33,860 bases of DNA from Candidatus Kaiserbacteria bacterium (GCA_013204405.1 JABMNX010000033.1:1-33860); one strand, 5' to 3'. Counted from the first letter of the stretch, positions 8,862-16,682 are shown. Program-made: numbers and translations. The notes: a model not told the origin generated them from the sequence alone.

Positions 8862-9083
8862 TTAAAAAAAACCACCGCACCCTACAAAATATACATTATC
8901 TTTTGCTGCTTCATCTGATACTGATACTTCTGAAGTACATTGTTTAGATGCCACTGTATTACTAGAAAGTCCTAATAGTGTATTAGGGGAATTTTTCACA
9001 AAAACAATAATGGCAACAGTAGTTATGACTACCGTAACGATAATCGCAGTTATAAGCTGTTTTGCTGAGTAACTAGTATTCAT
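8862..9083 (-). CDS. Small membrane-anchored peptide A ending in YFVGCGGFF (candidate precursor/substrate peptide), 73 aa
   Basis: TM helix, then a Ser/Thr-rich linker, then a C-terminal motif shared with 16464-16682. Start placed at ATG 9083 because an extended -10 ends 6 nt upstream; 9089 is the alternative. Confidence 0.85.
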   Translation of the reverse strand: MNTSYSAKQLITAIIVTVVITTVAIIVFVKNSPNTLLGLSSNTVASKQCTSEVSVSDEAAKDNVYFVGCGGFF

Positions 9084-9089
9084 AAACAT

Positions 9090-9098
9090 ATTGTAGCA
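9090..9098 (-). promoter_or_regulatory. Extended -10 element (TGCTACAAT) for peptide A; leaderless spacing
   Basis: TGn-TAnnnT match 6 nt upstream of ATG 9083. Confidence 0.55.
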
Positions 9099-9131
9099 TA
9101 TAAAATATTAAAATAGTAAATTATCCACATA

Positions 9132-10718
9132 TTAACGTTTAAATCTGTCATTAAATAGCTCTGGTGTCATAATAAGGTTAACACGCAATCCTGAGTCATT
9201 AATGAACTTAGGCAACTCCTGCGGTGGTATTTTGTGAATAAGGTCATTGTTATAGCTCCGTAGATAGAATTTCTCTAAAGAAACATTCTCTCTTTTTTGT
9301 GTTAATAAAATGGGGGCTTCTACTATAGTTTCGTTCGAGAGAAAGAAAAGGGTGCTAATGTATGAGCGCGTTAAGAAAAGCGCAGTGAGGGGGATTTCTT
9401 GATGTCGGGATACGTTAATGGTAGCAAGTGTCATGTCATCAATATTTCCAATAATATATTCAATCCATGCGCCCTTGCTCTTCCAAAGGGTGTTAAATGA
9501 ATAAAGTCGAGATAATTTTTCTTTCCCTAGATTTTGTATTAACGCATGCTCTTCATATGTTTCTAACAATAACTGCACATCTTTCATAAATGCAGTAATT
9601 TTATATGATTGTAATATAGGGTGTGACAAACGTATCTTCTGTTCTAGATTTTTAAGTTTAGTAAACACAACATCTTCGTCAGAAACTATATCAAATATTG
9701 GATGAGTAATTATTTCATTTTGTATGTAATAAGATGAGAGCGTTAATCCTATATCGTGTCCAAAGTCCGGACACAAATAAGGGTTCAGGGGTTGATATTG
9801 GTATCCAATACCAGCTTCACGTAGTGTTTCGTAGTACGCACCTTCTATAGTTCTAAGGTCGTAGAACAAGAGGTCATTGACTGGAGTTATTCTTATAATA
9901 TCTGAATTACTTATACGAGACGTGCTCCACCAAAACATCATAACTGGCGGTGCAGTAAAATAACGACACGCCCCGTTACCTAACTGTACAGCAGGGAGAT
10001 CATCAATAGATTCTGTGGTTTTAGATATAGCTGGGCGGGCATATTCTCGTATCATTGCCTCTGTAAGAATATCTTTATTTCGGACTAAAATGTTTTTCGG
10101 AGTGTTTGTTCCATTTTCTTGACGTTCATATTCTATCTCTATATCGGTTACCTTGGTGGTACATACTTTACGTAATCCAAAGAGGCATCTAAACCGGTTT
10201 TTTTCTTCCAATCTCCGTCGCTCTACATTTTGCAGTGCAAGGTTAAGTTGTGATGCATAAAAATTTACATCCGTGTATCCATTCAAAAAAGCTGTTTGGT
10301 TTTTATCAAACGTATTAAGGATATGTATTATATTTTTTATATCACGTGTATATGCTGTAATAGTTTTACGTAAATTAATGTGATATGTAATGGCAGTTAC
10401 TAAAGATGGTGATGTGAGAAACGTAAGGCGAGACCCTTCTGTGCTAGAGATAGTGCTTAGAAAACGTATTGGGTACAGACCCTTTAAGGTATATTTTTGG
10501 GAATCAGTAGGTAGATAGTTGGCGGATAAATGAATACTACGCGTTAAGTTTTCAACAGCATACTTTAGTGCAACTGGGTCAGTTCCTTCAAACGCAAATA
10601 GTGGAGTATCTCTATGGGACTCATAATATCCTTGTAGAGCCGCGCGAGATGGAGTATGTAACCCAAAGAGTATGAGTGTAGTGAGTAAAATGATAAGCGA
10701 TGTAGCTGTAGGTCGCAT
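9132..10718 (-). CDS. Uncharacterised exported/membrane-anchored protein, family X paralog 1
   Basis: N-terminal hydrophobic signal. PLFAFEG, LYPIRFL, YQYQPLNPYLCPDFGHD and LFLTRSY motifs are shared with 20313-21893 and more distantly with 15090-16415. Confidence 0.85.
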   Translation of the reverse strand: MRPTATSLIILLTTLILFGLHTPSRAALQGYYESHRDTPLFAFEGTDPVALKYAVENLTRSIHLSANYLPTDSQKYTLKGLYPIRFLSTISSTEGSRLTFLTSPSLVTAITYHINLRKTITAYTRDIKNIIHILNTFDKNQTAFLNGYTDVNFYASQLNLALQNVERRRLEEKNRFRCLFGLRKVCTTKVTDIEIEYERQENGTNTPKNILVRNKDILTEAMIREYARPAISKTTESIDDLPAVQLGNGACRYFTAPPVMMFWWSTSRISNSDIIRITPVNDLLFYDLRTIEGAYYETLREAGIGYQYQPLNPYLCPDFGHDIGLTLSSYYIQNEIITHPIFDIVSDEDVVFTKLKNLEQKIRLSHPILQSYKITAFMKDVQLLLETYEEHALIQNLGKEKLSRLYSFNTLWKSKGAWIEYIIGNIDDMTLATINVSRHQEIPLTALFLTRSYISTLFFLSNETIVEAPILLTQKRENVSLEKFYLRSYNNDLIHKIPPQELPKFINDSGLRVNLIMTPELFNDRFKR

Positions 10719-15087: not shown

Positions 15088-15089
15088 CA

Positions 15090-16415
15090 ATGAGTGATAT
15101 CGGTTTAATTAATTTTATAAGTACCGTAAAGAAAGACCCTCTTTTTGCTGCAGAGGGTCTTGATTTAGATAATGCCCGGAAAGCATTACTAGGATTAGGA
15201 AATTCAGTTGATGAACTTGAAGAAGCCTGGGGTGGGATAATTTCAAAACTATTTTTTATAAAACACCCTCCAAGAGAGTCTCTACATCCAATAGAGTTTT
15301 TAGAGAATTTTATTGAAAGTGAGTACGCTAGGCGAGTGTTTTTGAAAAGCGGAAGTAAAGAAGATGCTGATGCACTCCTAAATCAATGGAGAGAAACACA
15401 AAAATCTTATACAAAAAACCTTTTTTCTTATAAGAAGGCATTATTGGAAATACTAAAGATAGAAGAAATAGACCCTAATGCAAAGATTGATTACTTTAGT
15501 CTCGTTGGTTCTATTGGTGAGTTACTCAGCTGGGTTGATAGGTTATTAGAGAATGCTGAAGAGTTAGACTCGGAAATTAAGAAATTGGGGGGTATATTAA
15601 AAGGCGAAGAACAAATCTTCCGAAAGAGTAACGATAACAGGGATAAGTTAATTATTGAGAAGGCTGACCTACCAAAACTTCCTCAAATAGACTCCAATCT
15701 AGAGGAATTGGTCAGAGTGGCGACTATATATACTGAAAAGAAAAAAGCCTTTGGGCCTATTGTGTACTGGTTGGGCCATTTTAATGAAGGTAAAATAACT
15801 CCACATCGTTTTCTTGTCTACATAGGAACCAGTAAACACACCAACTGCAAGATGGTCACTATTCTACTTGCTGATGATATGTATTTTTTGAACCTTAAGC
15901 GTGATCACTTTATGGACTTATCAATATATGAGCCAGTAATGAAGAAGGGACTTAATTACTGGTACCAACCTGCTGCGGCAATTTATAATACATTAGATGC
16001 ATCTTACTGGGCCGATATTGTTACGATTGCAGACATTAAAGACAGAAAATTTATAAATGAAGAACAGGTGCTACAACAACGGTCGAGTTTGTTAGATTTG
16101 CTAATTGGTGCCGGAGTTTCTGCTGGGGTCACATTTACTAAACTTATTAAGATAGTTTCGCATCATAAAGAATCGGCAAAGCTTAGTTACTTGTATGCAG
16201 CGCGAGCATATCCAACGCTCTACTTTCTTTCATTCAACCAGAGTGTCTGGAGGATTGAGGAAAGTCCTTATTTATTTGGAACGCGTTTTGCAAAAGAATC
16301 ACATTATGAGAGTTATACTGACCTTAAAGACAAGGTTCCATTTGATGTTCTTAGAGACATTGTGGAAACTTCAGTTATGCGTACTGAATATTTTAAGAAA
16401 AAACTTGGAGTCTAA
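15090..16415 (+). CDS. Uncharacterised protein, family X paralog 2 (no signal/TM helix)
   Basis: DPLFAAEG, LHPIEFL..E..R..FL, GLNYWYQP and LYAARAYPTLYFLSFN align with the 9132 and 20313 proteins. Confidence 0.85.
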   Translation: MSDIGLINFISTVKKDPLFAAEGLDLDNARKALLGLGNSVDELEEAWGGIISKLFFIKHPPRESLHPIEFLENFIESEYARRVFLKSGSKEDADALLNQWRETQKSYTKNLFSYKKALLEILKIEEIDPNAKIDYFSLVGSIGELLSWVDRLLENAEELDSEIKKLGGILKGEEQIFRKSNDNRDKLIIEKADLPKLPQIDSNLEELVRVATIYTEKKKAFGPIVYWLGHFNEGKITPHRFLVYIGTSKHTNCKMVTILLADDMYFLNLKRDHFMDLSIYEPVMKKGLNYWYQPAAAIYNTLDASYWADIVTIADIKDRKFINEEQVLQQRSSLLDLLIGAGVSAGVTFTKLIKIVSHHKESAKLSYLYAARAYPTLYFLSFNQSVWRIEESPYLFGTRFAKESHYESYTDLKDKVPFDVLRDIVETSVMRTEYFKKKLGV

Positions 16416-16463
16416 ATAATTTGTTTAATTCCTAGTCTAGAGGGTTTAGATTTTATGGTCTTT

Positions 16464-16682
16464 TTATTCTAAGAAACCACCACATCCAACAAAAAGGTGG
16501 ATATTTGGGTTTTTCCTAGGTTGATTTTTGTCCAGACTAGAATTACCACTGCTTTTTTTCTTGGTAACAATGGTTTTTACGAGTGTAGTTACTTGAATTG
16601 TTAGTTTGTATAAAAAGAGGAGTAGGGTAGCAATCCAAACAGCACCCATTGAGGCAATTGTTATATTTCGTGATTTCCTCAT
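16464..16682 (-). CDS. Small membrane-anchored peptide B ending in LFVGCGGFLE (candidate precursor/substrate peptide), 72 aa
   Basis: Basic N-terminus (MRKSR), TM helix, polar linker and FVGCGGF. ATG 16682 lies 10 nt below an extended -10. Confidence 0.85.
   Translation of the reverse strand: MRKSRNITIASMGAVWIATLLLFLYKLTIQVTTLVKTIVTKKKSSGNSSLDKNQPRKNPNIHLFVGCGGFLE

Follow-up and report, generated by a model that had tools for sequence, protein, structure and literature searches.

Introduction

Enzymes of the ANL superfamily adenylate a carboxylate and then pass the acyl group on to a thiol or an amine. DltA, the partner of the microprotein DltX, is one of these adenylating enzymes, and LuxE, which has the PaaK fold, ends its reaction by acylating a protein cysteine near the C-terminus. 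AgrD is a membrane-associated precursor with a Cys, and the ring of the autoinducing peptide (AIP) consists of this Cys and four further residues, with a hydrophobic ring end. DltX itself is a membrane microprotein of teichoic-acid D-alanylation that carries a C-terminal FXYXXF motif with an invariant Tyr (available text of PMC12148441). Among the peptides that are made by ribosomes and modified after translation (RiPPs), ThiF-like enzymes adenylate peptide carboxylates (available text of PMC11256085), and GrcB uses ATP to form a Glu-Cys thiolactone close to the C-terminus (available text of PMC12596934). Here we describe a family of microproteins from Patescibacteria, starting from two members, A and B, which are encoded on a contig of 33,860 bp from a Candidatus Kaiserbacteria bacterium (GCA_013204405.1, JABMNX010000033.1). 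This entire contig (C30), referred to as the window, belongs to a genome of 595 kb in 53 contigs that is 93% complete. The microproteins end in a common motif, F-x-x-C-x-G-F, and are found together with PaaK-like adenylating ligases, P-loop-less paralogues of these ligases and a protein family, X, with which they may form one functional module.

The family resembles DltX in that its members are small, predicted single-pass membrane proteins with a short conserved C-terminal motif in which aromatic residues flank one nucleophile. Like DltX, they would work with an ANL adenylating enzyme and an extracytoplasmic membrane-anchored protein. The nucleophile is Cys and not Tyr, the motif is one residue longer, and a stalk of 26–53 residues without sequence conservation separates the helix from the motif. 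Since none of the 46 members carries a Tyr at the nucleophile position, membership in the DltX family was rejected and the likeness is functional only. MBOAT proteins (PF03062, DltB) were found in none of five genomes carrying the island, with a positive control in three reference genomes. The open reading frames (ORFs) of the window contain no DltB, DltC or DltD domains, and neither a carrier protein nor an SGNH protein was seen.

With the ThiF-like RiPPs (GrcA/GrcB, MccA/MccB, EnfA/EnfB; available text of PMC12596934 and PMC11256085) the family shares a conserved C-terminal motif next to an ATP-dependent, carboxylate-activating enzyme. In contrast to these systems the enzyme is of ANL/PaaK type and has a P-loop-less paralogue, and the peptide has a transmembrane (TM) helix in place of a soluble leader. 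Scanned with Pfam and NCBIfam, the window ORFs gave AMP-binding/PaaK-type matches for the adenylating enzyme and no match to E1/ThiF; genes for transporters, RiPP recognition elements (RREs) or radical S-adenosylmethionine (SAM) enzymes were likewise not found in these scans. AgrD is similar in being a membrane-associated Cys precursor, and a ring of the Cys with four more residues would be of equal size. It differs in that here only 0 or 1 residue follows these five (32 and 14 of the 46 members), leaving no long acidic tail to cleave, so that ring closure would need ATP, and in that the motif is conserved and not hypervariable. AgrB (PF04647) was found in none of the five carrier genomes, in a search with a weak control (1 of 14 reference genomes, below the cut-off), and on the missing AgrB and acidic tail we rejected membership in the AgrD/AgrB system. 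LuxE bears its Cys on the enzyme itself instead of on a separate membrane microprotein, and LuxC and LuxD partners are lacking here.

Two microproteins with a common C-terminal heptapeptide

The two genes and the elements around them are the following.

8862–9083, minus strand: microprotein A, 73 amino acids; another possible ATG at 9089
8862–8891, minus strand: tail motif and stop of A, Y-F-V-G-C-G-G-F-F-TAA
9098–9090, minus strand: extended −10-like element TGCTACAAT, recognized by eye, abutting the ATG at 9089
8788–8806, minus strand: intrinsic-terminator-like hairpin with T run, 56 nt downstream of the stop of A
16464–16682, minus strand: microprotein B, 72 amino acids
16464–16496, minus strand: tail motif and stop of B, L-F-V-G-C-G-G-F-L-E-TAA
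16701–16693, minus strand: extended −10-like element TGCTATACT, recognized by eye, 10 nt upstream of the ATG of B

Both genes had been proposed in an earlier interpretation made from the DNA alone (the sequence-only reading), and their coordinates and lengths were confirmed. Protein A starts with MNTSY and ends with DNVYFVGCGGFF; protein B starts with MRKSRN and ends with IHLFVGCGGFLE. The tail of A, YFVGCGGFF followed by the stop, has a hydrophobic end (type T1), and that of B, LFVGCGGFLE followed by the stop, a charged end (type T2). As had been predicted, each protein has a single hydrophobic 19-mer near its N-terminus that would form a TM helix (mean Kyte-Doolittle value 2.9 in A and 2.0 in B). 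The seven residues FVGCGGF shared at the C-terminus are encoded by TTT GTA GGG TGC GGT GGT TTT in A and by TTT GTT GGA TGT GGT GGT TTC in B; four of the seven codons differ, as stated before, and all four differences are synonymous changes at the third position. Between helix and tail the two proteins are otherwise unrelated: the linker of A comprises 35 amino acids with one Cys, and that of B is basic with a net charge of +7, lacks Cys, contains an 'NPN' sub-motif and is atypical in the family. A relaxed C-terminal pattern matched only 3 of the 16,785 stop-to-stop segments in the 595-kb genome that comprise 20 or more amino acids, namely A, B and an unrelated one on contig C19.

The sequence-only reading had further placed both genes next to family X and had assigned an extended −10 element to each. 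The adjacency holds: A lies 43 nt downstream of a family X gene on the same strand (9132–10718), and B is convergent with an X-like gene (15090–16415, plus strand) whose stop lies 49 nt away. As to the promoters, the two elements are visible by eye; no minus-strand promoter was found at either site by a consensus scan in which a −35 element was also demanded. The positions of TGCTACAAT and TGCTATACT would imply leaderless or near-leaderless mRNAs for A and B. A search for sequencing runs gave runs of DNA, three of which may derive from the source sample, and none of RNA.

Relatives of the microproteins in Patescibacteria

A search of 41 relatives for the exact pattern GCGGF proved too strict as well as noisy, giving 16 matches against 14 in the reversed control, with A and B as the only TM peptides. 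After this failure the family was recovered with a hidden Markov model (HMM) and relaxed regular expressions. In relatives of the same genus, small ORFs beside X end in LFVSCGGFLE, FFVSCAGFLE and LFINCVGFIE. An HMM built from five peptides was run over 401 genomes of the order, with the motif at the ORF end checked for every match, and revealed additional members in other families of the order. Nine weak matches were rejected upon inspection as the motif was not at the end of the ORF or the frame contained internal stops.

A search of a word-indexed protein database gave nine proteins, all annotated as 'hypothetical' and originating from Candidatus Lloydbacteria and Candidatus Paceibacterota. 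In a collection of species genomes a DNA pattern of motif plus stop gave ten matches, about three being expected by chance on our own estimate, and nine of them adjoin X or ligase genes. The labels of these nine include Candidatus Kaiserbacteria, Paceibacterota, 'Patescibacteria group' and two 'Saccharibacteria' metagenome-assembled genomes (MAGs); at the tenth, from Bacillota, no ORF ends in the motif. A companion pattern for the other tail type retrieved 34 stretches from metagenomes, 29 with a motif-ending ORF, and island genes were present at 21 loci. Two of these 29 ORFs (L098 and L111) have neither a TM helix nor island context and are probably chance matches. De-duplication left 53 candidates, 46 of which show a TM-like window, so that we count about 46 non-redundant TM-bearing relatives in Patescibacteria. 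The sequence-only reading had named as its refutation a lack of related peptides close to these gene families elsewhere, and the relatives found in other genomes clearly contradict such a lack.

The tail reappears, together with its gene context, in dozens of genomes, and the match between A and B is thus far beyond chance. Public gene callers annotate members as proteins. Among 12 members compared with Pfam and NCBIfam at E-values up to 1, no two matched the same family, and no match came near its cut-off. No report of the motif strings was found in the literature searched. On this basis we regard the peptide family as real and undescribed.

Two further observations concern copy number. In genome G323 a degenerate second peptide copy (L060:12639–12899) is located 2.4 kb from the intact one, with a nearly unchanged linker, the tail LFAECGRFL and a different N-terminal part. 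One Candidatus Kaiserbacteria genome (L082, L078) contains five or more peptide genes, among which both kinds of tail occur; three of these genes lie within 8 kb, and all adjoin X or ligase genes, indicating that the family can expand inside one genome.

Conserved tail and variable stalk

The members are predicted single-pass membrane microproteins of about 60–90 amino acids. In the 46 sequences the tail consists, in order, of Y (22), L (14), F (9) or M (1); F (46); mostly V (41); S (23), G (17), T (5) or N (1); C (46); mostly G (38) or A (5); G (46); F (43) or I (3); and F (30), L (12), I (2) or Y (2), frequencies that are inflated by the motif-based search patterns. The stop follows directly in 32 members and after one E, D or K in the other 14. 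Accordingly the Cys is the fifth or sixth residue from the end, respectively, and the motif is always C-terminal, which suggests that the free C-terminus matters. The tail has one invariant Cys and neither a conserved His nor a conserved Met. Fifteen sequences (13 genes and two database proteins) had been recovered without requiring the exact motif, and all of them have F(−3), C(0) and G(+2). These three residues are encoded by 2, 2 and 4 synonymous codons, respectively, in the 13 genes. This indicates purifying selection on the peptide at the protein level, in agreement with what had been deduced from A and B.

The linkers had been described as polar and unrelated. They are unrelated in sequence, except that exactly one extra Cys is kept 10–26 residues upstream of the motif in 41 of the 46 members; B and two other members have no linker Cys and retain the motif. 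B also belongs to a subgroup with the sub-motif 'NPN[KR]', together with peptides of L078, L082, L084 and L099. The net charge of the linker is negative in 27 members, neutral in 8 and positive in 11, and the N-terminal flanks are basic. Acidic linkers combined with basic N-terminal flanks would fit an N-in/C-out topology.

The tail end co-varies with the type of the neighboring ligase

The window contains three groups of ligase-family genes.

11980–12804, plus strand: L2a pseudo-ligase, 274 amino acids, P-loop-less (no TSGTSG) paralogue of the ligase N-terminal domain
12822–13944, plus strand: L2b PaaK-like adenylating ligase, in two overlapping frames (12822–13574 and 13549–13944)
16730–17647, plus strand: f6 pseudo-ligase, 305 amino acids, P-loop-less paralogue of the ligase N-domain, divergent from B
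17637–18857, plus strand: L1 PaaK-like ligase, interrupted by one TGA and three TAA
18949–20274, plus strand: L1 PaaK-like adenylating ligase, 441 amino acids
25123–28574, minus strand: second L1/f6/L1 set (L1 25123–26421, f6 26408–27268, L1 27270–28574)

The ligases matched the NCBIfam DVU_1553/PaaK models with E-values of 1e-23 to 1e-25, far below the equivalog cut-offs, and PDB entry 2y27 with E = 7e-12; their consensus keeps TSGTSG (the P-loop) and RYRTGD. From these matches we assign them to the ANL superfamily as PaaK-type enzymes that are not PaaK itself. By hhalign, f6 and L2a align to the ligase N-domain with probabilities of 97.1% and 99.3%, and both are without the P-loop. Each type of ligase is paired with its own P-loop-less paralogue (L2a with L2b, f6 with L1), and these pseudo-enzymes may act as adaptors or dimer partners. 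The split L2b, whose counterpart in a relative is a single ORF of 378 amino acids, and the L1 gene with four stops (17637–18857) look broken, reflecting either real decay or an error in the MAG assembly.

For each peptide we recorded the nearest ligase-family gene within 2.5 kb; 17 further peptides, mostly on short contigs, had none. T1 tails have L1/f6 as nearest ligase genes in 18 of 19 cases and L2 in one. For T2 tails, ending in E, D or K, the nearest genes are L2a/L2b in 11 of 13 cases and L1/f6 in two (Fisher p = 6.6e-6 for tail versus ligase type). Ligases had not been used as a criterion in either motif scan. Genomes possessing both modules keep the tail types sorted with the ligase types (L058, L078). 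One of the two T2 exceptions in this count is B, since f6 lies nearer to it; by the tail rule it would belong with the converging operon of L2a, L2b, a membrane protein and Xc.

Family X shares its genomes and loci with the microproteins

Three X or X-like genes are present in the window.

9132–10718, minus strand: family X copy 1, 528 amino acids, N-terminal TM anchor, four Cys, directly upstream of A
20313–21893, minus strand: family X copy 2, 526 amino acids, 48% identical to copy 1, no adjacent peptide gene
15090–16415, plus strand: X-like protein 'Xc', 441 amino acids, divergent, no TM anchor, one Cys, convergent with B

The occurrence of X was assessed with an HMM of 12 X proteins in the same sample of 401 genomes of the order. 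X was present in 9 of them, belonging to 7 of 223 genera, and credible peptides were seen in those same nine alone, which, given the modest sensitivity of the peptide HMM, means that they were not found elsewhere among the genomes searched. The link to family X that had been proposed from the window is thereby extended to the order. A PaaK-like ligase was detected in 20 of the 401 genomes, including all nine carriers of X. Even among same-genus relatives X is absent from three of the six searched, and the patchiness of the island suggests that the module as a whole has been gained and lost or has spread horizontally. In several genomes the island is bounded by housekeeping genes (transketolase, Rpe, RpiB, GAPDH). 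We see in peptide, ligase and X a three-part module that is specific to Patescibacteria.

In several genomes the copy numbers of peptide and X match (2/2 in G004 and in G141, 1/1 in others), and in most loci the two genes are directly adjacent. A frequent order on one strand is ligase, peptide, X: L1 precedes the peptide gene on its strand in 9 of 12 close pairs, and X follows it on that strand in 12 of 25. An N-terminal TM helix and four or more Cys are found in the majority of X proteins. A separate, well-supported clade consists of Xc from the window, L083:1602–3386 and L099:10905–12254, proteins with neither a TM helix nor conserved Cys. Having no TM anchor and only one Cys, Xc is probably cytoplasmic. 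The neighbors of this clade are L2-type ligases, joined in the window and in L099 by peptides without a linker Cys, a context which hints that the X fold may bind the tail on either side of the membrane.

In public data family X comprises 920 representative clusters (exhaustive search, E ≤ 0.001). Two representatives of about 955 amino acids (P0041 and P0122) fuse X to a domain of fam0, the Cys/His-rich family described below (E = 3e-42 against 1906–3408 of the window), which ties X and fam0 together. X by itself was of no use for finding related loci, as none of 67 pattern matches was confirmed. A protein-atlas search with X gave no usable match, the Atlas model being poor (pLDDT 0.28). A predicted complex of X (A4) and peptide (A3) scored 0.25 and 0.14, with the mark at 0.32, and thus speaks neither for nor against binding.

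Other genes of the island

When the genes of the window were sorted into paralogue families by all-against-all BLAST, the following features were found in addition to those above. Pfam and NCBIfam leave most of the contig without a match.

373–8842, plus strand: tandem array of seven fam0 genes, Cys/His-rich and TM-anchored
2–376 and 10790–11962: further fam0 copies, nine fam0 paralogues in total
22084–23529 and 23544–25250: pair of TM-anchored sulfatase-family proteins
14086–15087: multi-pass membrane protein between L2b and Xc, with a gap of 3 nt to Xc, no family match
28672–29961: multi-pass membrane protein, no family match; a homologue lies beside the peptide in G323 (L060:10792–12438)

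The invariant residues in 15 aligned members of fam0 are 14 Cys, one Glu and five His, among them those of H-x3-H and H-G-I-G-H. No Pfam model matches the family; two members contain a weak cupredoxin-like domain with 27.5 and 18 bits compared with the Pfam cut-off of 27. An AlphaFold model of fam0 is an all-alpha solenoid with a predicted local distance difference test (pLDDT) score of 87.7 and no significant match in the PDB. The sulfatase pair recurs in the island of L057, L061 and L084, and the usual Cys or Ser of the formylglycine motif is not obvious by eye.

Discussion

We tentatively favor the view, possible though still short of probable, that A and B form one module with the ligase, its P-loop-less paralogue and X, in which a thioester on the tail Cys is made at the cost of ATP and used by X. 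The Cys is invariant at a fixed position, a Gly is invariant at +2, and the terminus co-varies with the ligase; these three features lead us to consider the tail as partner or substrate of the ligase and the Cys as reactive. The cytoplasmic ligase would activate a carboxylate with ATP, and the Cys, five or six residues from the free C-terminus, would capture it as a thioester. The carboxylate could be that of a small acid, giving an acyl group, or the terminal carboxylate of the peptide itself, giving a thiolactone ring of 5 or 6 residues. Tethered by the N-terminal helix and the stalk, the tail would be displayed outside the membrane, where X, a TM-anchored and disulfide-bearing ectoprotein, would draw on the energy stored in the bond and transfer or resolve the group. 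Precedents for this proposal are DltX as a Tyr-based shuttle (PMC12148441), the ThiF-like adenylation of peptide carboxylates (PMC11256085) and the thiolactone made by GrcB (PMC12596934). Either of the multi-pass membrane proteins (14086–15087 and 28672–29961) could be an export or transfer component of such a pathway. Topology, covalent chemistry, order of steps and the role of X are all inferred here from sequence. The sequence-only reading had offered a core peptide, an acyl- or thioester-carrying Cys or a metal ligand; the first two have gained weight through the co-variation of the C-terminus with the ligase subtype and are so far at the level of proposals. The metal ligand has received no specific support.

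Several findings weigh against this model. The ligase is cytoplasmic and the tail is predicted to be outside, requiring either that loading precedes export or that the topology call is wrong; the flank charges are indeed ambiguous for A and favor a C-in orientation for B. To our knowledge no ANL enzyme acts on a protein C-terminus. The extra linker Cys of 41 of the 46 members fits a plain disulfide with the motif Cys equally well. The invariant residues of X are P, F, L, E, R and Y, without a Ser/His/Cys/Asp set typical of transferases or hydrolases, and its model matches no solved fold. The counts behind the co-variation come from related operons and from two motif scans, each retrieving a single type of tail, and therefore do not represent independent events. 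In the tree of X, in which one row was mislabelled through a spurious ORF (L060), the tail type is followed weakly (5 changes compared with about 8 in shuffles, with 10–13 of 500 shuffles as low), leaving the ligase as the component that tracks the extreme C-terminus of the peptide. In the window itself, A has no ligase within 2.5 kb, and the ligase-family gene nearest to B belongs to the f6/L1 pair with the broken L1.

That the tail docks on X or Xc without a covalent step, as a small regulatory or assembly subunit whose motif Cys forms a disulfide with the linker Cys, with the ligases making something else for the same envelope pathway, is somewhat unlikely in our judgement. It would account well for the matching copy numbers of peptide and X in several genomes, for their direct adjacency in most loci, for the single extra Cys of 41 of the 46 members, for an X without an obvious catalytic set, and for the fact that peptides without this Cys (B and both of L099) adjoin the TM-less, Cys-poor Xc. 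It leaves unexplained, however, why the one or two terminal residues go with the subtype of the ligase and not with the X clade, why the motif is obligatorily terminal and why B and two other members keep it without a second Cys. A released, RiPP-like product, with the tail as core peptide that is modified or cyclised by the ligase and cut from a TM 'leader' by a protease, possibly X, we consider unlikely. Such a product would be a diffusible signal, a cofactor or an antimicrobial, for instance a thiolactone of AIP size. A short precursor gene next to an ATP-dependent modifying enzyme is the usual RiPP layout, a Cys plus four residues with a hydrophobic end corresponds to the ring size of the staphylococcal AIPs, and the tail end co-varies with the ligase subtype. 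A conserved C-terminal motif behind a variable N-terminus is moreover known from the precursors of ThiF-type RiPPs (available text of PMC11256085). Yet the motif, unlike signals or toxins that diverge fast, hardly varies between distant families of the order, a full TM helix with a long stalk would be an odd leader, and X has no recognisable peptidase residues. Furthermore, Pfam gave no protease, exporter or ThiF family on the window ORFs, and AgrB was found in none of the five carrier genomes.

A metal-binding tail, in which the motif Cys and the linker Cys would ligate Cu or Zn and exchange it with the fam0 proteins and their cupredoxin-like domains, has the richness of the island in fam0 with its invariant Cys, His and Glu residues in its favor, together with the two cupredoxin-like domains and the fusion of X to fam0 in P0041 and P0122. 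We nevertheless hold it to be improbable, since the tail offers a single possible ligand without a conserved His or Met, the distance to the second Cys varies between 10 and 26 residues, the ligases would have no role and the cupredoxin matches are weak. Still more improbable is a lipobox at the C-terminus, by which both ends of the peptide would be anchored through diacylglycerol on the Cys of F-V-[SG]-C. Locally this hydrophobic-V-[SG]-C arrangement does resemble the lipoprotein consensus [LVI][ASTVI][GAS]C, but it is C-terminal, 26–53 residues past the TM helix and preceded by polar residues instead of the h-region of a signal peptide. Lgt (PF01790) was found in none of the five carrier genomes, two of which are single contigs, with a positive control in 10 of 14 reference genomes. 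Finally, both motifs of the window lie just downstream of plus-strand genes, as might be seen with chance ORFs or a misread conserved DNA or RNA element. Against this, the differences within the motif are all synonymous, about 46 genes, which lie on both strands and in differing gene orders, preserve the ORF with its TM helix, length and C-terminal motif position, and public gene callers predict proteins, so that we give this explanation next to no weight.

Returning to the proposed thioester module, a more specific version sees in the microprotein a tether that carries energy. The thioester, perhaps a self-thiolactone, would be made inside, and X would spend the bond on covalent links at the surface of its own or of a host cell. 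We regard this version as quite doubtful. If it is true, the tether would parallel the acyl shuttle of DltX, with Cys in the place of Tyr, and the thioester adhesins, with the bond made by a ligase. It would be confined to ultra-small episymbiotic bacteria, would be the first case of an ANL enzyme that works on the C-terminus of a protein and would serve at the surface, where no ATP exists.

The candidate phyla radiation (CPR), or Patescibacteria, accounts for a large share of bacterial diversity, and most of its envelope genes are without known function. Here a microprotein, family X and the fam0 solenoids, all without a Pfam or NCBIfam model, make up one co-inherited island around adenylating ligases, and it was the reading of small ORFs that revealed the piece tying this unannotated gene cluster together. 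A tail of 9–10 residues with one invariant Cys, in two types matched to two types of ligase, offers an experimental handle on it. If the released-peptide explanation is true, the island would represent a new class of RiPPs made by ANL enzymes. If the thioester reading is true, the idea of a covalent-shuttle microprotein, so far represented by DltX, would extend to thiol chemistry and to another enzyme superfamily.

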